44,066 nt of DNA from a phage (GCA_029093145.1 GCA_029093145.1_4347.1), one strand, 5' to 3'; shown: positions 7,473 through 41,295, numbered from the stretch's first letter. Notes: generated by a model from the sequence alone, not told the origin. Translations and numbers: made by a program.

Positions 7473-7499
7473 TTTTCACCTCCTGTTTAAGTTAACTGA

Positions 7500-7528
7500 A
7501 TAGTACCCTATTATATTGGGGTGTGCAA
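7500..7528 (-). promoter_or_regulatory. class B promoter TTGCAC-N17-TACTAT with embedded AATAG-N4-CTATT dyad
   Basis: On minus strand TTGCACACCCCAATATAATAGGGTACTATTCA; near-identical copies at 16744-16772, 40040-40068, 41236-41264. Confidence 0.5.
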
Positions 7529-7580
7529 ACTATTTATTTACGTATTCCAGTTATTCCACCGAATTGTAAATGTTGGAATA

Positions 7581-7596
7581 AACTATTCGAATAGTT
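7581..7596. promoter_or_regulatory. perfect 16-bp palindrome AACTATTCGAATAGTT
   Basis: Self-complementary; half-site ACTATTC matches the promoter-associated motif. Confidence 0.4.
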
Positions 7597-7800
7597 GACT
7601 TTTCACTAAAAATATGATAAGCTCCACCTGAGCTTGTGAAGTATGAACAAGCGACCGCGGCGCGGGCAGGTAACGGAGCGGGACGTAAGTCCTGAGTGTA
7701 GTTACGCTGACGCGTTCGGAAGGGCCATACTCTATTGCTTGTGTAAAAAGTAACTGGTTTACTGAGATTACGCCGTTTCTATGTTTAAATGATAAGGACT

Positions 7801-7830
7801 AGCGCCCCGCTTTATGGCGGGGCTTTACTT
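7801..7830 (+). terminator. terminator-like hairpin upstream of spanin genes
   Basis: AGCGCCCCGC-TTTATG-GCGGGGCT followed by TTACTT. Confidence 0.4.
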
Positions 7831-7848
7831 ATCGAGAAAGGGGGAAAC

Positions 7849-8235
7849 ATGAATCTTAAAGCAACTGTCGTAGCAGGAGCATGTTTCATCATCCTGGCTT
7901 ACGCACACGGCATCTACCAGTACCGCAGCGGCTGGAGCGAAGGCCGGGCGAATCTCGTTTCGCAGCAACAGCAGAAAGCGCAGGCTGAGTTAGCGAAGAA
8001 AACACAACGGCAGCAGCAGGACGAATCAAAGGCCGCAGCCGCTGGCAACGAAGGCAAGACGAAATCAGAGGTGATTACCCGTGAAGTCGTTAAGTACATT
8101 AAAACACCTGGCCGTAGCGTGTGCACTTTTGACCCTGAGCGCGTGCAGCTCAAGTCCCGCGCCGTCGCCAACGCCAATTCCATCCCCGGATACGACGATG
8201 ATGCAGCCGCCGTGCAAACTGGCGCAGCCAAGTAG
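7849..8235 (+). CDS. i-spanin (Rz-like)
   Basis: N-terminal TM segment VVAGACFIILAYAHGI then Q/A/K-rich coiled-coil-like region; SD GGGGGAA; an overlapping lipoprotein gene in +1 frame. Confidence 0.55.
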   Translation: MNLKATVVAGACFIILAYAHGIYQYRSGWSEGRANLVSQQQQKAQAELAKKTQRQQQDESKAAAAGNEGKTKSEVITREVVKYIKTPGRSVCTFDPERVQLKSRAVANANSIPGYDDDAAAVQTGAAK

Positions 8236-8344
8236 CGACGCTGACGAAGATTTGGCTATCGACGTTCAGAATGCCGAATGTGTACGGCAACTGAGACTGA
8301 AAGTGTTCATGTTGCAGGATTACGTGAGGAATATTCTGGAATAG
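8081..8344 (+). CDS. o-spanin (Rz1-like lipoprotein), overlapping the Rz-like gene
   Basis: Signal peptide with lipobox LTLSAC followed by proline-rich segment PAPSPTPIPSP; embedded/overlapping in alternate frame of Rz-like ORF. Confidence 0.55.
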   Translation: MKSLSTLKHLAVACALLTLSACSSSPAPSPTPIPSPDTTMMQPPCKLAQPSSDADEDLAIDVQNAECVRQLRLKVFMLQDYVRNILE

Positions 8345-8426
8345 TTGCCTTGCATGTTGGGATAATTTATTCTTGACATGTAAATCCGGGTGGCCCGGAT
8401 TCCAACGTCCAGGGGACATACTGACT

Positions 8427-9128
8427 ATGAATCGTTTTTTACGTTATCCGTTCCAGGAAGAAGCTGGAGCAGAAGATAAAGCTGGTGGCGGTGACGCGCC
8501 GAAAATGTTCACCGCTGAAGAAGTTCAGGTGCTGATTGAGAAAGAAGTTGCCGGGCTTAAGGCTAATCAGGAAGCATTGTTGGCGGAGAAGAAAGAAGCC
8601 GCTCGCAAAGCAAAAGAGGCCGAAGAAGAACGGCAGCGCGCGCACCAGGAGGCGTTAAAAGCCGCTGGTAAGATGGATGAGTTCGAAAAGACGATTCGTA
8701 GCCAGTATGACCCGGTGTTAGCCGAGAAAGACGGTCGCATCTCCAGAATGGCAGAGCGTATCCTCGGCAGCGAACGTAAAGCGGTGCTAGGCTCTTTCGC
8801 GGGTGACTTTATTACCCCAGAAGCAGTGGACATTCTTGCGCCGTTCGTTAAGACTGAGTTCGAAGGCGATGATGTGGTTACTAAGTTTGTTGGTGCAGAC
8901 GGTAACGTAATCACGACTGACCCGGAACAGTTCCGCAAATACCTGCGCGAACACAAGGCGTTTTCGCATTTGATCAAAGCAAATGCAGCTTCCGGCGGCG
9001 GGGCTTCCGGTAGCAAAGGCGGCGGGGCCGCACCAGCGTTTAAAGACATGAGTGAAGCAGAGCGTTTAGCCCTGTATAAATCGAACCCTGCCGAATTTGA
9101 ACGGCAACTTAAAGCCCTGAGGAAATAA
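8427..9128 (+). CDS. scaffolding protein (putative)
   Basis: Charged, alanine/glutamate-rich coiled-coil-like ORF directly upstream of major capsid gene (track ORF opens at 8373). Confidence 0.6.
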   Translation: MNRFLRYPFQEEAGAEDKAGGGDAPKMFTAEEVQVLIEKEVAGLKANQEALLAEKKEAARKAKEAEEERQRAHQEALKAAGKMDEFEKTIRSQYDPVLAEKDGRISRMAERILGSERKAVLGSFAGDFITPEAVDILAPFVKTEFEGDDVVTKFVGADGNVITTDPEQFRKYLREHKAFSHLIKANAASGGGASGSKGGGAAPAFKDMSEAERLALYKSNPAEFERQLKALRK

Positions 9129-9130
9129 TA

Positions 9131-14265: not shown

Positions 14266-14296
14266 AACTAAGGCCCCTTTCGGGGCCTTTTTCTTA
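14265..14296. terminator. bidirectional terminator
   Basis: AAAACTAAGGCCCC-TTTC-GGGGCCTTTTTCTT; A-run and T-run on both sides of the hairpin. Confidence 0.65.
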
Positions 14297-14848: not shown

Positions 14849-15336
14849 TATTTATCGCTCCCGTGTGGTTTTAAGTGTGTAGAGTTCCCGTTACAGTCGT
14901 ATTCGGTAACTGCGTGTGCAGTTATGCCGAGGTCACGGAAATGCTTTATTACCGCTGGAGAGTCGTCGAACGCACACAAGATTCTTTCCAGTCCGAAAGC
15001 ACGCAACACCTCTTCTTTAATTACGATGTCTTTTCTGTTGTCGTGTTTGCTGCGCATGATTAGCGTGTCAAACCTAACGTTATTCTCTCGTAACCATTCG
15101 CGAGTCTCCTCCTCAGCGTCATCACTTCGCCCGGTAAGGATAATTATAGTAAGTCCGGAATGCCACAGTACGCTACACAAATGGATATTGTCGTATATCG
15201 GAGCGTCATCTTTGCAGGCCATGTTAAATGGCTTCCACGCCCACGTTTCTCCGTAGTTATCTTTTGGTAACAGGTGTAAGCGATGGGTACCGTCGGCCAA
15301 TGTCCCGTCTAAATCGAAAATTACAATATCTTTCAT
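14848..15336 (-). CDS. HAD-superfamily phosphatase (Pnk-phosphatase / 5'-nucleotidase-like)
   Basis: HAD motif I IVIFDLDGTLA, motif II ILTGR, motif IV AFDDS; overlaps flanking genes by 1-4 nt. Confidence 0.7.
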   Translation of the reverse strand: MKDIVIFDLDGTLADGTHRLHLLPKDNYGETWAWKPFNMACKDDAPIYDNIHLCSVLWHSGLTIIILTGRSDDAEEETREWLRENNVRFDTLIMRSKHDNRKDIVIKEEVLRAFGLERILCAFDDSPAVIKHFRDLGITAHAVTEYDCNGNSTHLKPHGSDK

Positions 15337-16463
15337 CCCAGCATCTCCGGTGAAATAGTTAAACGTGCGACCTCGCCATATTCGGCGCTATAAGTAATTA
15401 CATTTGCACTGCGGCCCGACATCCATCCGCCGCGAGAGGCGTAGGCGTCTTTAGCCGCTAAGGTGCGGTGTTGCTCAACAATCATGTTACGGCTTTCTAC
15501 AATCTTCTGGTGGTGCAGATGGCCTACGTGGGCGTAGCTGTAAACACTCTCGCCGAACGCTTTACGGAACTTGGCAATCATAACCGGTTCGATAGCGTCG
15601 AATCGTGCTTTATGCCCGTGATGGAAGAACAGCGTCGTTTTGCCGTGTTGCACCATCTTGTAAACATCCGGCGACGTATCAACAATCACTCGGCTGTCGT
15701 TTGAGTATAAAACCGTGAACATTTCAGCAAGCCATACGGAGCCAACAGGGTCGTGGTTACCTTGAACGATTAAAAGTTTTACTGTGTGATGCTTAACCAG
15801 CGCCATATCAACAACACGGCGGACCATACGAATCATGTAACGTACCAGTTTCTGATAGCGAGTATCCGCATCTAATACATGGCGCGACTCGGGGGTAACG
15901 GCATCAAGACTATCGAAGTGTGCGAAGTCCCCAAGCAGGTTAATAACTCCTGTTCCTGCATCCGGTGCTTTCTGAAACGCCGCGTCGAACCACCGAGAGA
16001 ACAGGTCTTCTGCAATCTTCATGTCCCAGTCGTCGCCGCTCTCATCGGCCCATGCCAGCATACCGAGATGGAAATCAGATACCGTGTAAAGATTGAGTAG
16101 TTTATCGTCACGTTTGGCGCGCGCCGCTTTAACAGGCGCAACGGGCGTAATCTCTGACTTCATGCCCTCTATTACGGCTTTCATCAATTCAACCTGACGT
16201 TCGGCGTCGGTATCAGTCTTAACCCATTGCAACTTAGTGTTGCCGAACTCGTCCACCAGGGACGACGTTCCTTTAATCTTGTAACCGTCTGGTACAAGGT
16301 GGCTAACGTCGCGCCCGTGGCCCACGCCTTTCTTAGCCAGCTTCGCTTTACGGATACGAATTACGCGGTCTGAGATGCCGTATTTACGGGCGATATCTAC
16401 ATTCTTCATACCGGCGTTCAATTCTTCCTGCAACTGTTCGTCGGTTATTTTCTTCCGGGCCAT
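15333..16463 (-). CDS. HTH-fused calcineurin-like metallophosphoesterase
   Basis: N-terminal HTH-like region; metallophosphoesterase motifs SDFHLG, GDFAHFD, GNHD, HHGH, GHLHH; SD GAGGAA. Confidence 0.65.
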   Translation of the reverse strand: MARKKITDEQLQEELNAGMKNVDIARKYGISDRVIRIRKAKLAKKGVGHGRDVSHLVPDGYKIKGTSSLVDEFGNTKLQWVKTDTDAERQVELMKAVIEGMKSEITPVAPVKAARAKRDDKLLNLYTVSDFHLGMLAWADESGDDWDMKIAEDLFSRWFDAAFQKAPDAGTGVINLLGDFAHFDSLDAVTPESRHVLDADTRYQKLVRYMIRMVRRVVDMALVKHHTVKLLIVQGNHDPVGSVWLAEMFTVLYSNDSRVIVDTSPDVYKMVQHGKTTLFFHHGHKARFDAIEPVMIAKFRKAFGESVYSYAHVGHLHHQKIVESRNMIVEQHRTLAAKDAYASRGGWMSGRSANVITYSAEYGEVARLTISPEMLG

Positions 16464-16500: not shown

Positions 16501-16692
16501 CTACTTCTCTTTCACGTTCGAGTTGCAAGCCCAGATTAAAATGAATACCCACGGCAACAGAATCCACCCGAGAAATAAGTTAGCCATGAATATCGCCAGC
16601 TTTGCTTTATGGTTACGCATATGTGCCACCAAAAACGGGATAAAATAAACGGCTACAAAAATAATTAAGAAGAACATAGTGATACCGGTCAT
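16501..16692 (-). CDS. small membrane protein resembling superinfection-immunity-type proteins
   Basis: Two hydrophobic segments with NLFLGWILLPWVFILIWA motif; SD AGGAG before ATG 16692 (track ORF extends to 16719). Confidence 0.4.
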   Translation of the reverse strand: MTGITMFFLIIFVAVYFIPFLVAHMRNHKAKLAIFMANLFLGWILLPWVFILIWACNSNVKEK

Positions 16693-16743
16693 AACATAAC
16701 TCCTGATTTGAGATAACATCGTTGGTGTAAGTGAATAGTACGC

Positions 16744-16772
16744 TATTATATTGGGGAGTGCAAGTAGTGTGC
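16744..16772 (-). promoter_or_regulatory. class B promoter TTGCAC-N17-TACTAT driving the accessory operon
   Basis: Minus strand TTGCACTCCCCAATATAATAGCGTACTATTCAC; dyad AATAG-N4-CTATT at 16743-16756. Confidence 0.5.
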
Positions 16773-16870
16773 TAGAATAATTTTGCGCCTAGTGTCGCAC
16801 ACGAAAAGCGGGTGGTTCCCGTCTGGCGCATTTCCTTTAACCAGTAACCTCTTAACCAAAGGATTAAAGA

Positions 16871-19987: not shown

Positions 19988-20022
19988 CAAAAAAAAAAAT
20001 AAGGCCCGAAAGGGCCTTATTT
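19988..20022. terminator. bidirectional terminator (A10 / hairpin / T-run)
   Basis: AAAAAAAAAAT-AAGGCCC-GAAA-GGGCCTT-ATTTAT. Confidence 0.7.
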
Positions 20023-20835
20023 ATGCGGAACTTTAGGCTTCACTCCGTCCCTACAAAGGGCCAAAATCTCTGGAATTATCTTAGGGTCTGAGGTTAGCAT
20101 CCACTCCGTGGATCCGTCGAAGCTGCCATAGCCCCACTCATTCGACGCTATTTTGTAAGTGTTATGGAAATACACTTCTAGCATTCGTATTTTTGCGCCG
20201 TTATCGTCGCGATGAATGCCAAGCACTTCGAAACCAAAGGGGGTAGCGTTACGCAGGTGACGTATCCGCTGTTTAGGCCTGTTTGATATCCCTATCTTCA
20301 CGAATCGGCCGCATTCACTAAGTAACGCATAGAGGAACCCAGTTTTATTAGGGTCGTACCCGCTAGAGGCACATCCAGGACATCCTTGATTCTGATGAAT
20401 GATATCTGCTATTCGCTGGCTAAACTCACCATGGATATCGCAAAGCCGCACCGCTTTGCTATACTGATTCTTATACCCTCCTTCGAAGCGCAAGAACTTC
20501 CACTTATCACTCACGGCGTAAATCTGCGAGATGCGTTCCTCCTCTGAGTATGAAGGTCTTCCCGCGCAACTAGGACACCCATGTTCCTTACTAATTGCGT
20601 TAGCTATCAAAGTGTCGAACTCCCCGTGTTCGGGACAGAGCCTACGTACCTTAGAATAGGCGTTTCGATAGCCGTTAGGAAATCCTACAAAACTGTATTG
20701 CGGGGCTACCTTAGCTAGTTCCTCTACTACATTGCTCTCAGGTTTTCGCTGTTTGCTTGATGAAGATTCTTTTCCACACCTAGGGCACCCAATACCTTTT
20801 TTTAATACTAGCGGCCGTTGCCGAGAAAGCCCCAT
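20017..20835 (-). CDS. T5orf172 (GIY-YIG-like) domain protein with tandem zinc-ribbon repeats; homing-endonuclease-like
   Basis: Two repeats Y(R/K)N(A/Q)YSK-(V/A)(R/V)(R/L)C-x2-HGEF ... HGCPxC; C-terminal GFLYALLSECGRFVKIGISNRPKQRIRHL resembles T5orf172; antisense between tail genes. Confidence 0.6.
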   Translation of the reverse strand: MGLSRQRPLVLKKGIGCPRCGKESSSSKQRKPESNVVEELAKVAPQYSFVGFPNGYRNAYSKVRRLCPEHGEFDTLIANAISKEHGCPSCAGRPSYSEEERISQIYAVSDKWKFLRFEGGYKNQYSKAVRLCDIHGEFSQRIADIIHQNQGCPGCASSGYDPNKTGFLYALLSECGRFVKIGISNRPKQRIRHLRNATPFGFEVLGIHRDDNGAKIRMLEVYFHNTYKIASNEWGYGSFDGSTEWMLTSDPKIIPEILALCRDGVKPKVPHK

Positions 20836-28644: not shown

Positions 28645-30071
28645 TTCTTACTCCTACGTTTCATATAATTAAGTAGTTCATCCTGTACAGACCTTTTCTC
28701 GTCGGTACGCGCGGCGACAACCTCGTCCAGAGTGTCTTTAGCAACGATGTGATAAAGGAACACCGGGCGCTCGTGACCCGCCTGTTTCTGGCGGACTGGG
28801 CCTATGCGCTCAACAACCTGCAAATAGTGCTCAAGGTTCCAGCCTTGCGAGATGAACGCCAGATGATGACCCCCGTCCTGTAAATTCAAACCATGCCCGG
28901 CTGACGCAGGATGCACGCATAAAATCTCGATTTCCCCACGGTTCCACGCTTCCATCTGCTTGTTCCCCCTAGCGCCTTTGGCGAACGCCTGTGCCTGTGG
29001 GAATCGCTTAAGGATACGCTCCAGTTCGTGTTTAAACTGATAGGCTACCAGCAACGGCGCACCCTGCAACTCCTCAACAATCGACTCGAGCGCATCCAGT
29101 TTCGTGTCGTGCACTTTCCCCCAGTCTTTGGTCGCTTCGCCATCCGGCCCTGACACATACACGGCACCAGATGCAATCTGCAAGCACTTTGAGGTCTTCG
29201 CCGCAGCGTTAGCCGCTTCAACTTCCCCGCTCTCCAGTTCTGCGAATAACTTCTCCTCCATATCTATGTACGCCTGACGCGCTTTCTTCGGCAGGTCTAT
29301 TTCCACCGGTACGATAACAGGCGCTTCACAACCAAACCACTCGGCAGGGTCTATGGTCAGGCTGATGTCTTTCATCTTCTGATGAATCTCATTATCCGCA
29401 CCCGGTCGTGCATGATACTCGCGGGCCATAGCCGATTTACCTTTCTGTACCGAGTTAAACCAGCGGTCGGTGAATGCTGTGTACGAAGAGCCGAGGCGCT
29501 CGCCAGCGTCGATAAACCAGTTCTGACCCCACAAGTCTTTGAGGCCGTTTGGTGACGGTGTGCCTGTCAGGTTGATGAAACGCTTAACCTTTCCGAACGC
29601 AACCTTGCTGAGCGCCTTTGCCCGCTTGCTACCACCCGAACGGCTGCGGAACGATTTAAGCTTCGTGCTTTCATCGGCAACGATAACCGTAAAAGGCCAG
29701 TCGTCTTTGCCGTAGTAGTCAATTAGCCACTCGATAACTTCGTAGTTAGTGCACACCACGTTAGCATCTGACTCCAGCGCTGCGATGCGGCGCTTCTCCG
29801 AACCAGTTGCATCTACGACACGCAGACAAGGGAATTGCCATTTCTCTTGTTCAGCGGGCCACGTACCGGACGCAACACGTAACGGGGCAAGGATTAACAC
29901 GCGGTCCTCTTCCGTAAGCTGCCCGTTGCGGAACAGGCGGTTGAGCACCCACATAGTGGAGGAGGTTTTACCTCCCCCCATTCCGCACCAGATATTACAG
30001 CGCGGGTGTTGCAGCATGAACGAGGTCATGAGCTTCTGGTACTCGCGTCTTTGAAACTTAGACATGTTCAA
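28641..30071 (-). CDS. SF2 (DEAD/SNF2-like) helicase
   Basis: Motif I GMGGGKTS, motif II VADESTK, motif III LTGTPSPN. Confidence 0.85.
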   Translation of the reverse strand: MNMSKFQRREYQKLMTSFMLQHPRCNIWCGMGGGKTSSTMWVLNRLFRNGQLTEEDRVLILAPLRVASGTWPAEQEKWQFPCLRVVDATGSEKRRIAALESDANVVCTNYEVIEWLIDYYGKDDWPFTVIVADESTKLKSFRSRSGGSKRAKALSKVAFGKVKRFINLTGTPSPNGLKDLWGQNWFIDAGERLGSSYTAFTDRWFNSVQKGKSAMAREYHARPGADNEIHQKMKDISLTIDPAEWFGCEAPVIVPVEIDLPKKARQAYIDMEEKLFAELESGEVEAANAAAKTSKCLQIASGAVYVSGPDGEATKDWGKVHDTKLDALESIVEELQGAPLLVAYQFKHELERILKRFPQAQAFAKGARGNKQMEAWNRGEIEILCVHPASAGHGLNLQDGGHHLAFISQGWNLEHYLQVVERIGPVRQKQAGHERPVFLYHIVAKDTLDEVVAARTDEKRSVQDELLNYMKRRSKK

Positions 30072-30262
30072 TCCTTAACGTAGAGTACCAGCTCTTTACG
30101 CCCGAACGCGGTAACGTTGCCAGTTACGTCTTCGATAACCAGTTTACCGTTCGACTCGACGAACACCGTATCCACGGCAACAGGCCGACGGGTCTTAACG
30201 TTGAAAATCATGTCGCCCGGTACGATGTAACGTGCTGGTTTGCGGTCGTATTCGTGTTTCAT
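30068..30262 (-). CDS. hypothetical small protein (64 aa)
   Basis: SD AAGGA upstream; ATGA-type coupling to helicase gene. Confidence 0.45.
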   Translation of the reverse strand: MKHEYDRKPARYIVPGDMIFNVKTRRPVAVDTVFVESNGKLVIEDVTGNVTAFGRKELVLYVKD

Positions 30263-30292: not shown

Positions 30293-30580
30293 CTAACTAT
30301 AATAGCTAGCTATTAGGGTGTCAACCTGTTTGAACGAACCAACTACAAAAACATTTGCACCACGCTTACGCATCCGCTCGTGCTCTCGTAACTGGTGCGG
30401 GTCAGGCTTCGTGCTTTCGTCTTTCTTCACCTCGACGAACCAGACGATGCCGCCAGGGAGAATTACCAGCAGGTCGGGAGCGCCGGAACGTCCTTCGTAG
30501 GAGAGCTTGCGAACGAGGCCACCGAGGGCCTCGAATCGCTCTTTTGCGTATTTCTGTATGCGCCCCTCAGGCGTACTCAT
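30293..30580 (-). CDS. VRR-NUC domain nuclease
   Basis: PD-(D/E)xK-type motifs APDLLV ... FVEVKK; SD GAGGGGTG. Confidence 0.75.
   Translation of the reverse strand: MSTPEGRIQKYAKERFEALGGLVRKLSYEGRSGAPDLLVILPGGIVWFVEVKKDESTKPDPHQLREHERMRKRGANVFVVGSFKQVDTLIASYYS
30296..30324 (-). promoter_or_regulatory. class A promoter TTGACA-N17-TATAGT with AATAG-N4-CTATT dyad in spacer
   Basis: Minus strand TTGACACCCTAATAGCTAGCTATTATAGT; dyad 30301-30314. Confidence 0.5.
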
Positions 30581-30661: not shown

Positions 30662-30793
30662 TCATTCCAGCACCCACAGATAAATTGCGATGAACATGCC
30701 CAATATGGCAACCATCATGCCGTATTGACCCTCGTGACAGTAGACACCTGCGGCAAATCCCGCCAGTACCGCGATAATCAGTTTACTTAGCAT
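30662..30793 (-). CDS. small hydrophobic protein (43 aa)
   Basis: Hand-translated; overlaps 3' end of polymerase gene; hydrophobic MLSKLIIAVLAGFAAGV. Confidence 0.3.
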   Translation of the reverse strand: MLSKLIIAVLAGFAAGVYCHEGQYGMMVAILGMFIAIYLWVLE

Positions 30794-32954
30794 AGCGTTT
30801 TAACTCCTGACCTTCCGCTACAAGAGGGAACCCCTCCGCCCATTCTGGTAATTCGCACATCAATCGCTCAAGCTCTGCGACATTGTATTCCGGCGTATCT
30901 GGAGTTTCGCAGATAATCTCATCGTGGACATGAAGTACAATCGGGTAGCCGTTTGCTTCAACGTTAAGTAGCGCATTAGCCAGCAAGTCACGGCACAGTG
31001 CCTGAGTGCAGTTTTCCACCAGTTTACCGGAGTAGGTGTACTGGAAGCCCCACTGCCTGGTTAACTGATTTTCACCCTGATACTTGATGCGCACGTTAGT
31101 AGAAACTTTTCCGTCTTCGTCTGTCTCTTTTGACACGCTCAACCCGACGCCCGGGTATGACATAACGCGACCTGACGGCAACGTCATGCGCAACCACCAA
31201 CCAGCGACTTTGTTGCCGTTGTTGTCTGTTTCTACGTTGCGAGAAAACTTAACCCCGCGAGGGCCAGCGGTGAACTCTTTCCCCGGATTACGGATTGCTG
31301 CCATAGCTGCGTCTTCAATATCGCGCCAGAATTGGACTATTGCAGGATTAGCTTCCCGGTACATGCGCTTTAAAGCGTCACAGGTGCGCCAAACTTTCTT
31401 ATCAAGGATATATGAGGGTCGGTCATCTTTTTCACCAGGACGTGGTGGTCGCTTGGCTTCCTGAATACGCGCCCATTCGTATCCGCGTGCGGTAGCGGCC
31501 CAAATATGGTCCGGGAATGTACCGTCTAAAGTGTTAGTCATGTCATTCAAATCAAGACCTAAGTTTTTAGCAAACGTGACGAAAGCACCGACGCCCCCCG
31601 CGTAGCCGAGTCCCAGAACCATTGCTTTGGCTATTTGTCTTTGGTCCTTTGTTACGGCTTCATATGCAACATTGAACACCGTTGATGCGAGTTTCTTATA
31701 CACATCAACCCCGTTTACAAATACTTCGATTAAATCGTCTTCACCCGCCAGCCACGCAAGACCGCGGCCTTCGACGTTAGAGTAATCGGCGACGACAAAC
31801 TTATGCCCAGCTTCCGGTATAATGCAGCTACGAACGGTAGATGCCGTCAGCTTGGCTACGTCAAATCGGCGGTGCGCCCGGCCCTTAAGTAACGCTGAAA
31901 TGCCTTTATCCAGTTCATCATCGTGATAGTACCCACGCGCCAGGTTCTGTGGCTGGAAGCCTTTACCCGCGAACCGTAACGTACGCTTTGCCCCACCGTA
32001 CTGGATACAACCGCGGCGTCGGTCGTCAGACGAGCGGCCCAACAGCAGCGGGTTATATTTCGTGGACGCGGTGGACGCCGCCCCGAGGCGCATTTCGATA
32101 ATCATCCGGGCGTCGTCCGGTAAATCATCATCTGCCAACAGGTCGTTAAGCGTCGACTTCTGTGCATTGTGTATGCGGTGCGCGGGCGAAAGTTCACGCA
32201 GAATCGGAAGGAAGTCTTTACCGGTAAGCGAGCCGCCGTATTTACGTTGAGCTTCTTCCTGTAACTGTGCCTTGTGCTTCTCTACGGCTTCAATAGCGGC
32301 TTCCGCCAGTGCGACGTCAACCTTAAATCCGCGGTCGTTGATTAACTGGTCAAGCTCCAGTACACGGTCTTCGAACTCGGAGTTACCCCAACGCGGCAGC
32401 TTATGGAAGACTTCACGCATCGCAGTGATGTCGCTCACGGCGTACCTGATGAACATCGCCCACTCGTCAGGGTGAGTTTCTGCGGTGTAGCGGCGGATTT
32501 TGTAGTTCTTCGGCGTCGGTTTAGAGAAACGCTTAATCAGAGCCTTGCCGCGTTTATCTTTCGCGTTGTCTGCAGACACGCCCAGCACTTCGCACAGCGC
32601 ATCAAGAGAACCCGGCAGCGCGTGACGGAACGCCCAAATCATAGTATCAATGGTGTTACTTACCGGAATATCAAAGTCCCAGCAGTGTTTCATGATTAGG
32701 CGATCGAAAAGTCCACCGTTGTGCCACACCATCTTGATGCGGCTGTTGGGCTTAACAAGGCGGCGCAGTGCGCGGTGTAAATCCCCCGGCATGTCGCTGC
32801 CGTCGGTGCAATCCCATACCCGCACAGGTTCGTCGTCAAAAGCATATGTACAGATAAGCACTTCGGTTGACGGGTGTTCGGCGTAAGCGTAAGAACCGAC
32901 TTTCTTCAAATCGGCTTCTGAGAATGTTTCAAAGTCTAAGAACAGGTAACTCAT
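30783..32954 (-). CDS. DNA polymerase, family A, with 3'-5' exonuclease domain
   Basis: Exo motif FLDFETFS; Pol motif A DYSNVEGR, motif B RQIAKAMVLGLGYAGG, motif C HVHDEI. Confidence 0.92.
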   Translation of the reverse strand: MSYLFLDFETFSEADLKKVGSYAYAEHPSTEVLICTYAFDDEPVRVWDCTDGSDMPGDLHRALRRLVKPNSRIKMVWHNGGLFDRLIMKHCWDFDIPVSNTIDTMIWAFRHALPGSLDALCEVLGVSADNAKDKRGKALIKRFSKPTPKNYKIRRYTAETHPDEWAMFIRYAVSDITAMREVFHKLPRWGNSEFEDRVLELDQLINDRGFKVDVALAEAAIEAVEKHKAQLQEEAQRKYGGSLTGKDFLPILRELSPAHRIHNAQKSTLNDLLADDDLPDDARMIIEMRLGAASTASTKYNPLLLGRSSDDRRRGCIQYGGAKRTLRFAGKGFQPQNLARGYYHDDELDKGISALLKGRAHRRFDVAKLTASTVRSCIIPEAGHKFVVADYSNVEGRGLAWLAGEDDLIEVFVNGVDVYKKLASTVFNVAYEAVTKDQRQIAKAMVLGLGYAGGVGAFVTFAKNLGLDLNDMTNTLDGTFPDHIWAATARGYEWARIQEAKRPPRPGEKDDRPSYILDKKVWRTCDALKRMYREANPAIVQFWRDIEDAAMAAIRNPGKEFTAGPRGVKFSRNVETDNNGNKVAGWWLRMTLPSGRVMSYPGVGLSVSKETDEDGKVSTNVRIKYQGENQLTRQWGFQYTYSGKLVENCTQALCRDLLANALLNVEANGYPIVLHVHDEIICETPDTPEYNVAELERLMCELPEWAEGFPLVAEGQELKRYAK

Positions 32955-32971: not shown

Positions 32972-32996
32972 AAAAAGGCCCAATGAAGGGCCTTAG
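32972..32996 (-). terminator. attenuator/terminator hairpin between SSB-like and polymerase genes
   Basis: Minus strand AAGGCCC-TTCATT-GGGCCTT followed by TTTTACTAGG. Confidence 0.45.
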
Positions 32997-33014: not shown

Positions 33015-33641
33015 TTAGCGGCGACGACGTTCACGGCGCGGTGCTTCATCTTCTTCGTCATCTTCCAGGTCATTGACGCTCGCGGCGACTTTAGAACCGC
33101 CGAACGCTTTGCCTTCGCCAACGTATTTAATCGCCAGCAGGTTAACGCCGAGGACTTTGTATTTCTGGCTGAACCAGATTTCAACGCTTACGTTAGCTAA
33201 GCATCCGCTGTAAACCTGTTCACCTTCAATCTGTTCGCCGTCTACGTTGAAGTCCTGCTCTACCTGAGTCTCGCCTTTTTTAGAGGTTACAATCAGCGGT
33301 TGTTTCTGTGCCTTCGCTTTGAAGTAGAAGCCTTCCGGGAAGTCTTCAAACGGATTGTCGCGCTCGGCAATGTCTTTAATCGCGCATTTATCCATGTGCT
33401 TACCTTCACCGTAGTTGGACTTCATCCATTTCTCGGCAGCGGCTGCGCCTAACGCTTCTTCAACTACAGCGTAAACGGTGTCGTAGAGTGCATCGATTTG
33501 AGCATGGTCAGACGGCAGGATGATAGTCGCGCTGTACTGGCCTTTAGTGATTGAGCCATCATCGTTTTCACGGTCTTTTTCACGTTCAAATACGTTAACC
33601 CATGCAGTGTTTACTTTACGCAGATTCAGTTTAATACCCAT
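33015..33641 (-). CDS. SSB-like protein (DUF2815-like), acidic C-terminal region
   Basis: Position next to Cas4-like nuclease and polymerase; DLEDDEEDE near C-terminus. Confidence 0.45.
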   Translation of the reverse strand: MGIKLNLRKVNTAWVNVFEREKDRENDDGSITKGQYSATIILPSDHAQIDALYDTVYAVVEEALGAAAAEKWMKSNYGEGKHMDKCAIKDIAERDNPFEDFPEGFYFKAKAQKQPLIVTSKKGETQVEQDFNVDGEQIEGEQVYSGCLANVSVEIWFSQKYKVLGVNLLAIKYVGEGKAFGGSKVAASVNDLEDDEEDEAPRRERRRR

Positions 33642-33709
33642 CGTGATTTCTCGCTTTTCAGTTTATATTTCAAAGTTTACTCCGGGAAGCTGCCCGGCCA
33701 GTGATTAGA

Positions 33710-33738
33710 ACTATAATAGCTAACTATTCAGGTGTCAA
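33710..33738 (-). promoter_or_regulatory. class A promoter TTGACA-N17-TATAGT with AATAG-N4-CTATT dyad
   Basis: Minus strand TTGACACCTGAATAGTTAGCTATTATAGT; dyad 33715-33728. Confidence 0.5.
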
Positions 33739-33927
33739 ATAAAATTTTGCAATAGGGATTATGTTCTCGAAATTAAGCATATTGGCCGGTTCGAACTCAT
33801 CCTCTACAGGGTAGTATCGCATCATGGTACCGTTCAAGAACGTGAACGATTCCGAGTGTAGATACCCATCCCAGTGCCATACCATCAAAAAATCTTTATC
33901 AGTCGGCATTTCATTTACTTGAATCAT
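33724..33927 (-). CDS. hypothetical small protein (67 aa)
   Basis: ATG 33927 overlaps stop of upstream gene; SD GAGGAGGA lies inside upstream C-terminal codons (track ORF opens at GTG 33957). Confidence 0.45.
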   Translation of the reverse strand: MIQVNEMPTDKDFLMVWHWDGYLHSESFTFLNGTMMRYYPVEDEFEPANMLNFENIIPIAKFYLTPE

Positions 33928-35165
33928 TCTAAATCCTCCTCTGTAACTTGATTCCACTCAGGACGTTTGTCATCCGCCGTTGCGACGCATGGCGCACCGG
34001 GCTTACGGGTAATGAAATCTTTCAGTTCTTCTTCCGGTACAATTTTAACCGCTTCGGTCGGTGTCATAAGAACTACCTTTTGCAGCATAGTACCGTACTT
34101 CTCGAATACTGCATCGGTATCTTTCCACGCACGATTACCCGGGCGTCCTTCAACCAGTTTATACCCCGGCACTTTCTTACCGGAATGTAACGCAGCAGCC
34201 ATAGCTTTCTCAACCTTGTCGATGTGCTGGCGCAACAACGGCAACTTCTCATACTCAGCTACGAGTTGCTCTGGCGTAAGCTCAAGTGCAAAGTCGTCCT
34301 CCAGTTCTTCCGCCAGCCCCGCGTTAACGGTTTTTGTACGCGCTGCGCATTGTTCAGAGAACCGACACCACTGACAACCATCTACCGACGGCTTGAAGTC
34401 CGACGCTTTCAGGTTCTTTTTACCCCGGAAATAGGCATCAAGAGCCAACAGCGCCCGTTTCTGTGCAAACTTAGCGAACAGTTCCAGACCTTCAACCGAG
34501 ATGTCCCACTCTGTCGCGCCCCCAGCGTAAGGCTGGAAGATGACCAGACGAACGGTTGTTATGTTATAACGTCTCTTGAGTCGACGATAAACACCGAGAG
34601 CGTAAAGCATAAGCTGCTTGTTTTCTTTCGCTTCGACGCGATGCCGCCCGGTTTTCAGGTCGCCGATAATGAGCATGTGCTCGTCGGTGTTTGCCAGTTC
34701 CTGGACAGCAACGAGGTCAGCGGTTCCGAACGTCTCAACGCCTTCATACCCCGGATGCAATACCTCAGTAAGATTGACACGCATTTCCAGCTTGGCGTAA
34801 GTCGCTACGTCTATAATCGCTTTGCAGTAGTCGGTGTACTTGCGCACCTGCTCAATCATGTCCGCCGTAATCAGTACCGCGCCTTTCATCGGGCTGATTA
34901 GCGCCTTAATCTGACCTTTGCCTTCATCCAGTACGTAAGCACCGACTTCACGCTCTAGCGGCAACGCAGTTCCGCGGATATAGGCGTTGAGATGGACCTC
35001 AGCTATTGTGTGCATAGCTGTGCCTAATACAGCAGCTTTACCTGACGTGTTAGGAATATCTTTTTCACAGGCCAGCGATGCGGCGCAACTTAGCCACTTT
35101 TTAGCCCCAGACGGCGACAGCAGGGCGTGCACATCGTTACTGCCGCCACGTTCTTTTAGTTTCAT
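33924..35165 (-). CDS. PD-(D/E)xK nuclease, Cas4/RecB-like (DUF2800-like) with Cys cluster
   Basis: Motifs GTADLVAV, IIGDLKTG, QLMLYA; cysteines CAASLAC and CQWCRFSEQC; SD GGGTGGGAG before ATG 35165 (track ORF opens at 35186). Confidence 0.7.
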   Translation of the reverse strand: MKLKERGGSNDVHALLSPSGAKKWLSCAASLACEKDIPNTSGKAAVLGTAMHTIAEVHLNAYIRGTALPLEREVGAYVLDEGKGQIKALISPMKGAVLITADMIEQVRKYTDYCKAIIDVATYAKLEMRVNLTEVLHPGYEGVETFGTADLVAVQELANTDEHMLIIGDLKTGRHRVEAKENKQLMLYALGVYRRLKRRYNITTVRLVIFQPYAGGATEWDISVEGLELFAKFAQKRALLALDAYFRGKKNLKASDFKPSVDGCQWCRFSEQCAARTKTVNAGLAEELEDDFALELTPEQLVAEYEKLPLLRQHIDKVEKAMAAALHSGKKVPGYKLVEGRPGNRAWKDTDAVFEKYGTMLQKVVLMTPTEAVKIVPEEELKDFITRKPGAPCVATADDKRPEWNQVTEEDLE

Positions 35166-35316
35166 GCTCTTAAACTCCCACCCCATTTAACTTTACGCGT
35201 TTTGCGTTTGTAGGCGCACGTGTCGCCGCTACGGTTGAATATAATCAGCCAAGTCGAGTTGCTTACGCGAAAAGGCTGATGGCGTTTAACAAACAGAAAA
35301 CGGGCTTTACGGTTCG

Positions 35317-35769: not shown

Positions 35770-36270
35770 TTATTCTTCTTCGAAATACTTGTTCTTGATT
35801 GCTGTCAAGCGTTCCAGGTACTCAACCAGGTCTTCGTCTTTAATCGCGGCAATCTTCATCTTCTTACCTGTGAACTCTTCCAGCAGTTCATCAGAATCAT
35901 CGCACGCGGCATCGCTAGGACCTTCATTAATTGCATCGTCGATGGCCTGAATCTGGTCACGCAGAGACTTATAGTCTACTTCTTCTTTCTCTTCTTCCGG
36001 CTCTGGCGTCGTTTCCTCTACTTTAGCTTTACGCGGCTTGCGTTTTGGCTTCTCTTCTTCTGCCGGTTTAGTGTCAACGATGTCTTCACCTTCTACCGGG
36101 ATTTCTTTTGTTGCTTCTTCAGCACACTCAGCTACCGCTTCTTTGGTGTACGATACCGTCTCTACTTCCAGCGGCGCGGCAACCTGAACAACTTGTTTCG
36201 CACTGTTCGCGGCAATCAGTTCATGTGCAACTACGAAACGTTCCAGTAATACTAAGAATTTCTCTAACAT
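35770..36270 (-). CDS. highly acidic hypothetical protein (166 aa)
   Basis: SD AGGAGAA; long E/D-rich tracts (EPEEEKEEVD, DDSDELLEE). Confidence 0.5.
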   Translation of the reverse strand: MLEKFLVLLERFVVAHELIAANSAKQVVQVAAPLEVETVSYTKEAVAECAEEATKEIPVEGEDIVDTKPAEEEKPKRKPRKAKVEETTPEPEEEKEEVDYKSLRDQIQAIDDAINEGPSDAACDDSDELLEEFTGKKMKIAAIKDEDLVEYLERLTAIKNKYFEEE

Positions 36271-36294: not shown

Positions 36295-36522
36295 TTACTC
36301 GCCGTCGCCTTCTGTAAGGCTATCGTCTATTAATTCAAATCTACCGTTTGAGTGTTGAATAGCTTCTTGCCCGCAATGGTCACAGACAACAAGTTTATCG
36401 AACCCATCAAACTCATCCCCTACTACGCAAGAAAGTACAAATTTATGTTTTGTGCACACTTCTTGCGGAGCGCCGAAAATTGCTCGAAAACCTTTAGCTA
36501 TGGCCCCAGTGATTGTGTTCAT
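36295..36522 (-). CDS. small Cys-containing (zinc-finger-like) protein
   Basis: SD GAGAGGGG; CTKH ... CDHCG cysteine pattern; first gene after class A promoter. Confidence 0.5.
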   Translation of the reverse strand: MNTITGAIAKGFRAIFGAPQEVCTKHKFVLSCVVGDEFDGFDKLVVCDHCGQEAIQHSNGRFELIDDSLTEGDGE

Positions 36523-36550: not shown

Positions 36551-36579
36551 ACTATAATAGCGAACTATTCACATGTCAA
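36551..36579 (-). promoter_or_regulatory. class A promoter TTGACA-N17-TATAGT with AATAG-N4-CTATT dyad
   Basis: Minus strand TTGACATGTGAATAGTTCGCTATTATAGT; dyad 36556-36569. Confidence 0.5.
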
Positions 36580-36643
36580 TGGGCTTTTCTAAAATAATTA
36601 ATATGGTACTATTCACATATCAACTGACTAAGGAGTAACTGAC

Positions 36644-36859
36644 ATGCAACCATCTGAACTAGGCACCCGTGTAGAACAACGCCGTAAAGAACTCGGCATC
36701 TCCCAGCGCCGTTTGGCGGCCCTGACCGGCGTTTCCCAGGGCGCGATTAACCAACTGGCACTTGGAGTAACTCAGGACGTCCGCCCGGCAACGCTGTTCA
36801 AACTGGCGGAAGTTCTGGAAGTAGACGCCAAGTGGCTGGCGTTAGGTGAAGGGGCTTAA
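36644..36859 (+). CDS. Cro/CI-type HTH (XRE family) transcriptional regulator
   Basis: ISQRRLAALTGVSQGAINQLALG helix-turn-helix; SD AAGGAG; divergent from replication operon. Confidence 0.85.
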   Translation: MQPSELGTRVEQRRKELGISQRRLAALTGVSQGAINQLALGVTQDVRPATLFKLAEVLEVDAKWLALGEGA

Positions 36860-36875
36860 AGCCCCTTTCTTTTTA
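36849..36875 (+). terminator. rho-independent terminator
   Basis: AAGGGGC-TTAAA-GCCCCTT followed by TCTTTTT. Confidence 0.6.
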
Positions 36876-39202: not shown

Positions 39203-39436
39203 TTATTCCAGGTCTTCTAAAGTAGCGGTCATTCCGCGAACTTCAGCAAAGGCACTATATTTCCCGCCAACATTTTTCACGACGCCAGATTTAACCAGCA
39301 CTTTTAACGACCCTTCAATAATGACGGAACTATAGTACTTAAAATAACTGCGGCGCAAGTCGATAACGCTGCACGACCCTTTTTTACGTGTTAATGAAAC
39401 GACTGCCGTAAATACGCGTGACTGGAACTCGGTCAT
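39203..39436 (-). CDS. hypothetical protein (77 aa)
   Basis: Overlaps HTH gene start by 4 nt; shares C-terminal LEDLE tail with two replication proteins. Confidence 0.45.
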   Translation of the reverse strand: MTEFQSRVFTAVVSLTRKKGSCSVIDLRRSYFKYYSSVIIEGSLKVLVKSGVVKNVGGKYSAFAEVRGMTATLEDLE

Positions 39437-39630
39437 TTTACATTCTCCTTAATCCACGCTTCCACTTTCTCCCGGTCAAACGTACCTGGCTGACGGCGGC
39501 CCATAATGCGGACACAACAATCCGGGAACTTCCCACTCTTTAACCAGTTATTCAGCGTGCGACGGGTAACCCCGATACGCTCAGCTACCTCATTCTGTGT
39601 CATCCTCAAGCCCCCATTATCAGTTAACAA
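39433..39630 (-). CDS. AlpA/excisionase-like HTH DNA-binding protein
   Basis: MTQNEVAERIGVTRRTLNNWLKSGKFP helix-turn-helix. Confidence 0.6.
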   Translation of the reverse strand: MLTDNGGLRMTQNEVAERIGVTRRTLNNWLKSGKFPDCCVRIMGRRQPGTFDREKVEAWIKENVK

Positions 39631-39635: not shown

Positions 39636-39664
39636 AGTATACATTGTGAATAATGGGAAATCAA
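39636..39664 (-). promoter_or_regulatory. sigma70-like promoter TTGATT-N17-TATACT
   Basis: Minus strand TTGATTTCCCATTATTCACAATGTATACT upstream of HTH gene. Confidence 0.4.
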
Positions 39665-40039
39665 ACATAATCGCACCTATTGACATTATGAAAATCTTCG
39701 TTTAAGGTGCTTTTATATCTTAGTTACTTTGATTCTTGTTCACCTTGTAATACCCGCTTGAAACGCAGCGGCGCACCAGCGCCAGCGAAGTGTTAAGCGG
39801 CAGATTACTGAACATATGAATTATCGTAACTTTCCTTCCTAAGTATCTCAGGTTGCCCTGGGCAAGCTCTATTCTCATCGACGGCATATCTCTTAAGTAT
39901 CTGATAATTAAAAGTTTCTATAGTTGCCGTGAGCAAGGTAGAGAGTACTTCACTCCGCTGGGGTGGGCTAACGCCCACCCACTGCGTTGCGTACTCTTTT
40001 AAGAAACGAAAGAATCACAACGGCAACGTAACTATTCTC

Positions 40040-40068
40040 TTGCACACCCCAACATAATAGGTTACTAT
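40040..40068 (+). promoter_or_regulatory. class B promoter TTGCAC-N17-TACTAT
   Basis: TTGCACACCCCAACATAATAGGTTACTATTCA; dyad 40056-40069. Confidence 0.5.
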
Positions 40069-40102
40069 TCACTTATCGAAACGAGACATAAGGAATTTAG
40101 AA

Positions 40103-40321
40103 ATGAACAAAGCGACCGCAAGCGTAGTTTCCGCAATCAAACAAGTTTACGGCATCGATATTTCAGAGCGCGTAATTATCGGGAACAAACGCAACTTCTT
40201 TACGTTCGGCACCGACGGTATGGATGAAAATGATTTTGTTAACGTACAACGTTTCGCTAACGGTAAAGGACTTCGTAACGAGCCAGCGGGTTACAAGAAA
40301 TTTGCTATCTACTTTAAATAA
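40103..40321 (+). CDS. hypothetical protein (72 aa)
   Basis: SD AAGGAA; downstream of class B promoter. Confidence 0.5.
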   Translation: MNKATASVVSAIKQVYGIDISERVIIGNKRNFFTFGTDGMDENDFVNVQRFANGKGLRNEPAGYKKFAIYFK

Positions 40322-40442
40322 ACCCACGGCGCCGAATCATGGCGCCAGTGCCGACGACTCTGAGGGAGGTTGCCGTGAATAATTACCCGTTTATTTTAAT
40401 TGCCAGCGCCGTTTATGTGGCGCACGCGTTGTGGGGGTTGGT

Positions 40443-40598
40443 ATGAGAATCCGTATAACTGACCGCAGGCTTATAGATTTCGGTATCTCGGTAGGTGATG
40501 TTTTTCTGGCGTTCAGCAGCAACCATTATGGGTATATGATTGAGTACAAAGGGTCGCTATTGTTCGTGTATCGGGATGAATGCGAGGTTCTGGTATGA
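40443..40598 (+). CDS. hypothetical small protein (51 aa)
   Basis: Hand-translated ORF. Confidence 0.3.
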   Translation: MRIRITDRRLIDFGISVGDVFLAFSSNHYGYMIEYKGSLLFVYRDECEVLV

Positions 40599-40738
40599 GA
40601 GAAGCATTCGAACGGTGGGCCATCGTCGAGGGTCTGCCGGTTAATAAGGGTTCGAAGAAAGAGTACCTGAACGTTAAGACGCGTCTCGCGTGGCGGGCGT
40701 GGAAAGCTGGTGCGCAAGCTGTGATGAATAAGGGGTGA
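40595..40738 (+). CDS. hypothetical small protein (47 aa)
   Basis: ATGA overlap with upstream ORF. Confidence 0.3.
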   Translation: MREAFERWAIVEGLPVNKGSKKEYLNVKTRLAWRAWKAGAQAVMNKG

Positions 40739-40741
40739 TTT

Positions 40742-40927
40742 ATGGGCGAGTGGATTAAGTGTAGTGAGCGGATGCCGGAGCCTTATGAATACGTTCTTGT
40801 AACTGATTGTTTTGTTGGCTGTGAGGTTATGCGTGTTAATTCAGATGGCTACTGGGGGCCTGCAAAGAGTTTATATCACGGTGATATAACGCACTGGATG
40901 CCGTTACCTGAGCCGCCGGAGGTGTGA
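40742..40927 (+). CDS. DUF551-like phage protein
   Basis: C-terminal HWMPLPEPPEV motif recalled as typical of this family. Confidence 0.4.
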   Translation: MGEWIKCSERMPEPYEYVLVTDCFVGCEVMRVNSDGYWGPAKSLYHGDITHWMPLPEPPEV

Positions 40928-41051
40928 TGTTCAATAGTTCGGGATTTTACTGAGTGACTTACGCTGCTACACAGCAGCGTATCATTTTTCTCATTTTTGT
41001 TCTATTTCACCAAACGCAACAATCGAAGCGACTATTGCAGGAGATGCAACA

Positions 41052-41228
41052 ATGGAAACGTTCACAGAGAAACTTATGTGGTGCGTTGCAAAGCGAGACG
41101 CTGCGGCCAGAAGCTACCGTAAATGTGCCAACTGCGGCAGCGAGCAGGTACAGCTAATCTCGTACCTGGGCGGCACGGTTACACATAAGTGTCGAAAGTG
41201 CCATCACGTACATTCACAACACCAATAA
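41052..41228 (+). CDS. small zinc-ribbon protein (58 aa)
   Basis: SD AGGAG; CANCG ... CRKCH four-cysteine pattern (hand-translated; track shows a different frame 40954-41157). Confidence 0.4.
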   Translation: METFTEKLMWCVAKRDAAARSYRKCANCGSEQVQLISYLGGTVTHKCRKCHHVHSQHQ

Positions 41229-41235
41229 AATTTAC

Positions 41236-41264
41236 TTGCACACTAAGATAGAATAGGCTACTAT
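41236..41264 (+). promoter_or_regulatory. class B promoter TTGCAC-N17-TACTAT
   Basis: TTGCACACTAAGATAGAATAGGCTACTATTCA; dyad 41252-41265. Confidence 0.5.
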
Positions 41265-41295
41265 TCATTTACACGAACGAGAGGAGAGACAGAAG

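Follow-up and report, generated by a model that had tools for sequence, protein, structure and literature searches.

What does a short inverted repeat do when it recurs inside one promoter after another of a virulent phage? The stretch analyzed here, a 44,066-bp window comprising essentially the whole genome of a Kagunavirus (subfamily Guernseyvirinae), carries the dyad AATAG-N4-CTATT (AATAGNNNNCTATT) in seven exact copies. We propose that the dyad is the operator of a 71-amino-acid (71-aa) phage protein resembling Cro of phage 434, which would repress by promoter occlusion and regulate its own gene; comparative sequence evidence tips modestly toward this reading as a whole. The repeat has already been published, and the mechanism is the familiar one of an ordinary phage gene switch. 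What is new is the operator reading and its assignment to the Cro-like protein.

The dyad is far more frequent than composition predicts. Against the seven perfect copies, 100 dinucleotide-preserving shuffles of the window averaged 0.05 copies and never exceeded 1, which confirms the repeat reported in a first-pass annotation of the same DNA. Allowing up to one mismatch gave 11 sites where 1.04 were expected, the additional four lying at 36600-36613 (a degenerate copy already noticed in the first pass), 5-18, 7590-7603 and 21002-21015. When all 5- and 6-mer dyads with gaps of 0 to 10 were ranked, AATAG-N4-CTATT came first in the window, well above a shared terminator hairpin. Nine of the 11 sites fall wholly within non-coding DNA, which makes up 7.9% of the window; upstream genes hold the remaining two at their 3' ends. 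All 11 sit inside sigma70-like promoter sequence, overlapping a -10, a spacer or a -35; promoters here are consensus matches, with start sites predicted from the sequence pattern. Six of the seven perfect copies were originally placed correctly, whereas the second lies at 16734-16747 rather than 16743-16756, an apparent digit transposition. The everted palindrome AACTATTCGAATAGTT is present at 7581-7596 as described; its right arm supplies the left half-site of the dyad at 7590-7603.

The genome around these sites depends on the host for transcription. Guernseyvirinae, also called "Jersey-like", are lytic siphophages that infect E. coli and Salmonella, and the closest relatives of this genome are Escherichia phages BEU33, BEU35, fEg-Eco06 and XY1, at 91-94% nucleotide identity. 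Gene order is the same as in annotated relatives: the plus strand carries the structural genes, a leftward replication cluster between 28 and 39 kb encodes a SNF2 helicase, DNA polymerase A, an Enc34-type single-stranded-DNA-binding protein (SSB), a PD-(D/E)XK nuclease and a primase-helicase, and small rightward genes begin at about 40 kb. No RNA polymerase gene was found by domain search of the large open reading frames or is annotated in relatives, and no tRNA was found in the window; transcription must therefore rely entirely on the sigma70 RNA polymerase of the host. Annotated relatives show no integrase or CI-like gene, and the window holds a single 71-aa HTH_3 gene. Published descriptions call the group strictly lytic (PMC7203180, PMC9825357).

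The dyad occupies different positions in different promoters. As the first-pass annotation claimed, class A promoters read TTGACA-N17-TATAGT and class B promoters TTGCAC-N17-TACTAT, with the dyad about 6 nt further upstream in class A (centre at -18.5) than in class B (-12.5). Class C, absent from that annotation, has the dyad over a TTGACT -35, centred at -33.5. Spacers in classes A and B are 17 bp, the optimal length. In class A, all ten specified dyad bases except one fall within the spacer, a region in which sigma70 reads almost nothing. Class B promoters contain a second -10-like hexamer (TATAAT, CATAAT or TAGAAT), and the left half-site overlaps it.

Comparison across genera separates the dyad from the promoters that contain it. 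Promoter alignments were anchored by the gene downstream, not by the dyad, and drew on about 40 distinct Kagunavirus and Jerseyvirus sequences. Both half-sites are almost invariant across this set, while N4 takes at least eight values among orthologues and the 4-5 bp linker that joins the -35 to the dyad varies too. The register also moves, with dyad centres at -12.5, -15.5, -18.5 or -33.5. In the superinfection-immunity promoter, TTGCAC-N10-AATAG in Kagunavirus corresponds to TTGCAT-N7-AATAG in Jerseyviruses SETP3 and SS3e, which brings the dyad 3 bp nearer the -35 (centre at -15.5). Such variation implies that RNA polymerase does not read the dyad in a fixed frame. Cornellviruses, the third genus of the subfamily, have no AATAG-N4-CTATT even with one mismatch, and yet their SSB promoter is recognizably orthologous, keeping the TTGACA, the -10 and a hairpin in the 5' untranslated region. 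Orthologous promoters thus work without the dyad, which is an added layer. Together, conservation, register and lineage distribution make the dyad very probably a genuine protein-binding operator, selected apart from the -35 and -10. The initial proposal of an independent binding element stands on these grounds; its estimate of at least seven promoters in two classes was too small, the regulon comprising about 11 promoters and a third class.

The Cro-like protein is the best candidate binder. Its gene (36644-36859, plus strand) encodes a Cro/C1-type protein (Pfam HTH_3, E 3.9e-13) and is the only plus-strand gene within the minus-strand replication cluster. An intrinsic terminator hairpin (36848-36868, plus strand) lies directly after it, between convergent genes, making the gene monocistronic; a terminator is annotated at the equivalent place in SETP3. 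By phmmer, residues 6-68 of the protein, almost its full length, align at E 5e-6 and 38-40% identity with 434 Cro and with the DNA-binding domain of the 434 repressor. An AlphaFold model (predicted local distance difference test score 84) has five helices and matches XRE proteins that bind dyads as dimers, among them C.BclI, HipB, C.AhdI, SinR and 434 Cro, at template-modelling scores of 0.78-0.87 (0.80-0.87 for 434 Cro). The perfect dyad at 36556-36569 and the imperfect one at 36600-36613 lie immediately upstream of the gene. Every dyad-bearing genome examined has an HTH_3 gene, including that of the cultured Kagunavirus ST20, a complete genome that lacks the two other regulators named as candidate binders. 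A pattern-based scan of IMG/VR for dyad-bearing genomes without HTH_3 returned mostly single chance matches in unrelated contigs; the informative loci were already-known Kagunavirus and Jerseyvirus contigs with HTH_3, so this check is not an independent one.

Some details of operator sequence track the type of Cro-like protein, although Kagunavirus and Jerseyvirus share one 10-bp core. HTH_3 proteins fall into three types by recognition helix: SQGAINQ in Kagunavirus, SQSLITH in Jerseyvirus and TQSAISH in Cornellvirus. SS3e, considered as a third variant, proved to be of the SETP3 type, annotated in a shortened form; its annotation equates the HTH_3 gene with "MB78 gp7". The analysis covered 80 IMG/VR loci fetched around HTH_3 homologues. 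The base flanking the half-site is T in 38 of 38 Jerseyvirus half-sites, whereas Kagunavirus has T in 51% and G in 41%. At the SSB promoter the split is complete, with G in 37 of 37 Kagunavirus-type loci and T in 13 of 13 Jerseyvirus-type loci, the latter including two recombinants whose promoter flanks are otherwise Kagunavirus-like.

Cornellviruses carry a variant of the motif beside their own HTH_3 gene. AATAC-N4-CTAAT, which emerged from recurring two-mismatch matches, has nine copies in 116 kb of Cornellvirus DNA (about 0.06 expected per genome) and none in 840 kb of Kagunavirus and Jerseyvirus DNA. De novo dyad enumeration in Cornellvirus yielded no perfect palindrome. The variant has variable N4, occurs in both orientations, and lies in the spacer or -10 of the promoter divergent from the HTH_3 gene and of one other early promoter. 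Copies were located in the Cornellvirus loci at L004 19884 and 23577, L056 9883 and 13576, L058 9060 and 9883, and in L006 and L057, amounting to two or three promoters per genome. Separately, Cornellvirus VSiA has two direct repeats of GTGAATAGTTAT in a G-rich region downstream of the primase gene. The distribution of the variant suggests that a small ancestral circuit of the Cornellvirus type expanded into the roughly 11-site regulon of Kaguna- and Jerseyviruses. Of the regulators, HTH_3 alone is shared by all three genera. Among the three binders that the first-pass annotation had named, the Cro-like protein survives every test and gains some support from co-variation, and on this comparative evidence we consider it the probable, by no means certain, binder of the dyad.

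The arrangement of the sites points to repression by occlusion. In the proposed mechanism, a dimer of the 71-aa protein would occupy both 5-bp half-sites, whose separation is about one helical turn, and so keep E. coli RNA polymerase from the -10, spacer or -35 elements of host sigma70 promoters. We favour occlusion over activation or polymerase loading because all sites overlap the core promoter, class A promoters are near consensus and the register varies; with 11 of 12 consensus bases and a 17-bp spacer, class A promoters need no activator. The Cro-like gene has its own best promoter at TTCACA (36568-36573)-N16-TAAAAT (36590-36595), plus strand, within a control region spanning 36568-36613. 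Its -35 overlaps the perfect dyad at 36556-36569, and the one-mismatch dyad AATATGGTACTATT at 36600-36613 covers the predicted start, an arrangement kept in other Kagunaviruses. These two positions imply negative autoregulation, by which the regulator would limit its own synthesis. Binding itself, the dimer stoichiometry, the direction of repression and its timing are what we infer from these patterns.

Repression would turn down essentially all non-structural transcription units. The three class A promoters, all on the minus strand and the best sigma70 matches between 28 and 44 kb, would bring the three replication operons into the regulon. The first (36551-36579; dyad AATAGCGAACTATT at 36556-36569) drives 36295-36522, 35770-36270 and on to the PD-(D/E)XK nuclease gene (33924-35186). 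The second (33710-33738; dyad AATAGCTAACTATT at 33715-33728) drives the SSB gene (33015-33641) and the DNA polymerase A gene (30783-32954). The third (30296-30324; dyad AATAGCTAGCTATT at 30301-30314) is embedded in the 3' end of a VRR-NUC gene and drives a 64-aa gene (30068-30262) and the SNF2 helicase gene (28641-30071).

Class B promoters would add the accessory and small-gene units. On the minus strand, the promoter at 7499-7528 (hexamers 7528-7500, dyad 7499-7512) drives a single 67-aa gene (7269-7472), and that at 16734-16763 (hexamers 16763-16735, dyad 16734-16747) drives the superinfection-immunity gene (16501-16719), an exonuclease gene (15333-16463) and kinase genes down to 14294. On the plus strand, the promoter at 40040-40069 (hexamers 40040-40068, dyad 40056-40069) drives small genes from 40103 to a terminator at 40960-40981, and that at 41236-41265 (hexamers 41236-41264, dyad 41252-41265) drives the rightward small-gene operon from 41296.

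The remaining sites extend the predicted regulon to the window start, to an inserted gene and to the edge of the structural genes. The class C promoter at 5-38 (plus strand) reads TTGACT (10-15)-N17-TATATT (33-38) under a one-mismatch dyad, ACTAGTTGACTATT, at 5-18; it drives 72-320 and downstream small genes, and the orthologous site in SETP3 is AATAGTTGACTAGT. The second class C promoter (7581-7623, plus strand) reads TTGACT (7595-7600)-N17-TAAGCT (7618-7623), has the one-mismatch dyad AATAGTTGACTTTT at 7590-7603 and faces the spanin, scaffold and capsid genes from 7789; its site is kept in fEg-Eco06 and ST20. A further promoter, TTGACC-N17-TAGTAT at 21002-21036 (minus strand, one-mismatch dyad at 21002-21015), drives an inserted 272-aa CapR/DUF723 gene (20017-20835, minus strand). 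The 272-aa product has CapR-homology and DUF723 domains and is homing-endonuclease-like; its gene sits between the tape-measure and tail-tip genes and is missing at the equivalent position in fEg-Eco06. Two groups of promoters would stay outside the regulon. The dyad-less promoter TTGATT-N17-TATACT (39636-39664, minus strand) serves the operon of an HTH_17 protein (39433-39603), a 77-aa protein and the primase-helicase, and is conserved without the dyad in SETP3. The likely late promoters show weak or extended -10-type matches only.

Several observations pull against the proposal that the Cro-like protein represses through the dyad. Conservation of the class B left half-site could partly reflect promoter function, given its overlap with a -10-like hexamer, and the IMG/VR loci are closely related, so that counts overstate the number of independent events. 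The Kagunavirus and Jerseyvirus HTH_3 proteins are 48% identical and differ at four of seven recognition-helix positions, yet their genomes share an identical 10-bp core. Conversely, the Cornellvirus helix TQSAISH resembles the Jerseyvirus helix, but the putative Cornellvirus operator differs, and AATAC-N4-CTAAT is not a true palindrome. The 64-aa gene at 30068-30262 is 92-94% identical between Kagunavirus and Jerseyvirus and absent from Cornellvirus, which is the distribution of the dyad itself. Finally, the only transcriptome for the genus, that of K1B4 (PMC12645636), classes superinfection-immunity and DNA polymerase genes as late-peaking, unlike a simple early shut-off.

The conflict between unlike recognition helices and a shared core would vanish if a different phage protein bound the dyad. 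The 64-aa product of 30068-30262, or another protein specific to Kaguna- and Jerseyviruses, could be the binder, leaving the Cro-like protein with a local or other role; unlike HTH_3 helices sharing one core would then pose no puzzle. The 64-aa protein, however, has no DNA-binding domain match and appears beta-rich, and its Kagunavirus-plus-Jerseyvirus pattern is seen for many genes, Cornellviruses being more distant. A different binder would also explain neither the co-variation of the flank base with HTH_3 type nor the presence of the Cornellvirus variant beside the Cornellvirus HTH_3 gene. We regard this alternative as rather unlikely.

The Cro-like protein might instead bind the dyad with an outcome other than plain repression. 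It could activate some promoters, among them its own, in the manner of lambda CI at PRM, or it could work as a delay or titration device, freeing the operons once genome copies build up. Relative to TTCACA-N16-TAAAAT, the perfect dyad at 36556-36569 has its centre at -39.5, the site from which such self-activation would act, and the closest structures include restriction-modification controller proteins (C-proteins), which activate and then repress. Several genes of dyad-bearing operons peak late in K1B4 (PMC12645636); that time course is poorly synchronized and of low resolution. Its "specific DNA binding" gene beside the AAA (primase) gene, which we infer to be HTH_3, falls in the middle class, and overall the transcriptome neither confirms nor clearly contradicts a shut-off role. 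Ten of the 11 dyads lie over the -10, spacer or -35, where a bound protein would occlude RNA polymerase, and class A promoters are already near consensus, so an outcome of this kind seems to us a slim prospect.

The published view of the repeat gives it no dedicated binder. PHIRE recovered seven repeats in Kagunavirus fBC-Eco01, with consensus tgAATAGTa-ccTATTat-T (PMC9825357, Supplementary Table S2), and seven PHIRE promoters were reported for Golestan (PMC7203180); both sets are the same DNA element as the AATAG-N4-CTATT dyad. The authors labelled them phage RNA polymerase promoters, noted no symmetry and proposed no operator (PMC9825357, PMC7203180). That label is wrong because these phages encode no RNA polymerase, and it is an annotation error likely to propagate. 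A broader version would have the repeats form a related promoter family, with a phage-specific consensus read perhaps by a phage-modified polymerase, or be duplication copies, their symmetry arising from two overlapping -10-like hexamers. PHIRE's recovery of a repeated 20-mer (PMC9825357) fits this account, as do class B promoters, where both half-sites overlap -10-like hexamers (TATAAT and TACTAT). Against it stand the missing polymerase gene, the spacer position of the dyad in class A, the four registers, half-sites that stay fixed while N4 and linkers diverge, and the dyad-less orthologous promoters of Cornellviruses. We judge it improbable. Our literature search turned up no proposal of an operator, no test of the Cro-like protein, and no functional study of MB78, Jersey-like promoters or a Jerseyvirus repressor and operator, older MB78 literature lying outside the search.

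A host transcription factor is a still poorer fit. E. coli and Salmonella phages share an identical dyad core, as a common enterobacterial regulator might predict. To our knowledge no such regulator has an AATAG-N4-CTATT motif; that of OxyR, ATAG-N7-CTAT, has a different spacing. Cornellviruses infect Salmonella without carrying the dyad, and the flank base follows phage HTH_3 type rather than host. Binding by a factor of either host is accordingly very improbable. An activator of the MerR type, which binds in the spacer, is ruled out since it needs a spacer of 19-20 bp and those here are 17 bp.

The two other binders named in the first-pass annotation, the HTH_17 and KilA-N proteins, fail on gene content. 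Pfam confirms an excisionase/AlpA-like HTH_17 protein and a weak KilA-N match. The HTH_17 gene starts at the ATG at 39603 and encodes 56 aa, as judged from the conserved promoter TTGATT-N17-TATACT, whose end is at 39636. HTH_17 shows 83-91% identity between Kagunavirus and Jerseyvirus, is absent from Cornellvirus and heads the dyad-less primase operon. We sought distant HTH_17 homologues to test co-variation, and only relatives of at least 83% identity were found. ST20 has neither HTH_17 nor KilA-N, although it keeps six perfect dyads and the usual near-perfect ones at the same promoters; in two of the 80 IMG/VR loci (L018 and L028), dyads are likewise kept and HTH_17 is gone. HTH_17 is thereby ruled out as the general binder. 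KilA-N (4939-5592) falls with it, its gene being missing from ST20 and its own promoter bearing a different palindrome.

What HTH_17 might still have offered is a second mode of action, as a repressor or as a Q/AlpA-type antiterminator loading inside the promoter. Its conservation in both Kaguna- and Jerseyviruses and its absence from Cornellviruses lend it some plausibility, and P. aeruginosa AlpA binds an element between -35 and -10 (PMC7969949). Dyads that persist in ST20, L018 and L028 without the gene, and a variable register unsuited to a polymerase-loading element, leave binding by HTH_17 barely credible. An AlpA/Q-type loading element is rejected on the same grounds, given four registers that include -35 and -10 overlap. 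A lambdoid immunity region can also be dismissed: there is no CI, sites are single rather than tripartite, and lysogeny genes are lacking.

Both rejected proteins have noteworthy surroundings. The first two genes of the primase operon (39203-39603 here; 6954-7539 in the ST20 locus L089; also L018 and L028) form a swappable cassette. Most Kaguna- and Jerseyviruses have HTH_17 and the neighbouring 77-aa protein, while ST20, L018 and L028 carry unrelated 47-aa zinc-ribbon (CxxC...CxxC) and 149-aa proteins, the latter without a Pfam match; these alternative gene pairs may stand in for each other functionally, for instance as accessory factors of the origin or primase. At 5623-5646, a 24-bp near-perfect palindrome, AATTCTACATTTGAATGTAGAATT, overlaps the KilA-N gene promoter TTGATT-N18-TAGAAT (5653-5624, minus strand) and looks like a second operator unrelated to the AATAG dyad, possibly for KilA-N autoregulation. 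The KilA-N gene is replaced in fBC-Eco01.

The proposed Cro-like switch shares its parts with known systems and differs in its layout. The operators of phage 434 are 14-bp dyads (ACAA-N6-TTGT) with conserved outer bases and a variable centre. Here too a 14-bp dyad has fixed outer bases and a tolerant centre, operators overlap the -35 or -10, and the regulator gene adjoins divergent promoters with two sites; both proteins (434 Cro and the one here) are 71 aa and share a fold. The features of a 434-Cro-like system found are thus the five-helix fold, the operator geometry, promoter overlap as judged by sequence pattern, and adjacency of gene and operator. Unlike 434, this phage has no partner CI, no three-site OR/OL arrays and no lysogeny module. 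Its predicted operators are dispersed singly over about 11 promoters of a 44-kb lytic genome, and the half-site sequence is unrelated.

Dispersed operators and small timing regulators have precedents of their own. The temperate-phage repressors P1 C1 and mycobacteriophage L5 gp71, the latter with its "stoperators", govern dispersed-operator regulons through asymmetric sites in the maintenance of lysogeny, and stoperators lie within transcribed regions. As in those cases, one small phage regulator would act at many short sites across the genome on many transcription units; in contrast, the sites here are symmetric and confined to core promoters, and the phage is virulent. C.AhdI and C.BclI, which match the model structurally, represent C-proteins, small XRE-type dimers that bind in-promoter dyads (C-boxes) as timing devices. 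Theirs is one promoter with paired dyads, activated at low and repressed at high concentration, whereas here there is no restriction-modification context. The AlpA-binding and lambda Q-binding elements are likewise short in-spacer elements for a small phage-type DNA-binding protein (PMC7969949). Those elements, however, keep to one register, lack perfect dyad symmetry and exert a positive effect, and the AlpA-like protein of this group is dispensable for keeping the dyad.

Other non-coding features of the window may add further layers of control. At 16782-16846 (plus strand), the Rfam int-alpA RNA motif (RF02996) matches at 36.6 bits against a gathering threshold of 35.8 (E 4.7e-4) with its conserved core intact. 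The leader of the tail-chaperone/tape-measure operon holds the match, which follows closely on a TGcTAGAAT extended -10-like sequence and is arranged back to back with a class B dyad promoter. Its block TAGAATAATTTTGCG.CTAG is conserved in Cornellvirus VSiA too, and the element could be a leader RNA in late-gene control. In the 5' untranslated region of the SSB gene, the hairpin CCGGGCAGCUUCCCGG (33682-33697, in RNA from the minus strand) is kept across all three genera, including places where the leader around it has changed. It may be a translational or stability element; purely by analogy, SSB autoregulation of the T4 gp32 kind can be envisaged.

The remaining features mark gene boundaries and a possible origin. 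A non-coding gap of about 375 bp (39665-40039) separates the primase-operon promoter from the divergent class B promoter. Within it are the hairpin GGGTGGGCGTTAGCCCACCC (39961-39980) and a solitary conserved half-site, GTCAATAGGTG (39674-39684), the latter upstream of the -35 of the primase operon. SETP3 retains blocks of this gap, which may be an origin or regulatory region. Elsewhere, a family of near-identical, GC-rich AAGGCCC-loop-GGGCCTT hairpins (4915-4934, 7243-7263, 14270-14289, 20001-20018, 27971-27990 and 32975-32994) is flanked by T/A runs on both sides and placed at junctions of convergent or differently oriented gene blocks. They are probably bidirectional intrinsic terminators.

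A wider and more doubtful possibility is that a temperate-style circuit operates within a virulent life cycle. The lytic group may run most of its non-structural transcription through one Cro-like protein and about 11 operators, expanded from a circuit of two or three sites that Cornellviruses still display. Such a protein might be a master timer, or might sense copy number as genome replication titrates the repressor; it might possibly activate itself from -39.5, and perhaps make cells immune to superinfection by relatives.

Assigning the motif to a Cro-like repressor would give these phages a testable regulatory wiring. Few phages are isolated and put forward for biocontrol and therapy of Salmonella and E. 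coli as often as Jersey- and Kagunaviruses, for which hundreds of genomes are available. Their sole recurring regulatory motif has been mis-annotated as the promoter of a nonexistent polymerase. The assignment specifies which operons would be co-regulated and which, the primase and late genes, would not. It would also supply synthetic biology with a compact, orthogonal repressor/operator pair that has natural specificity variants of Kaguna, Jersey and Cornell type, and the same circuit offers a possible explanation for cross-immunity between related therapeutic phages.

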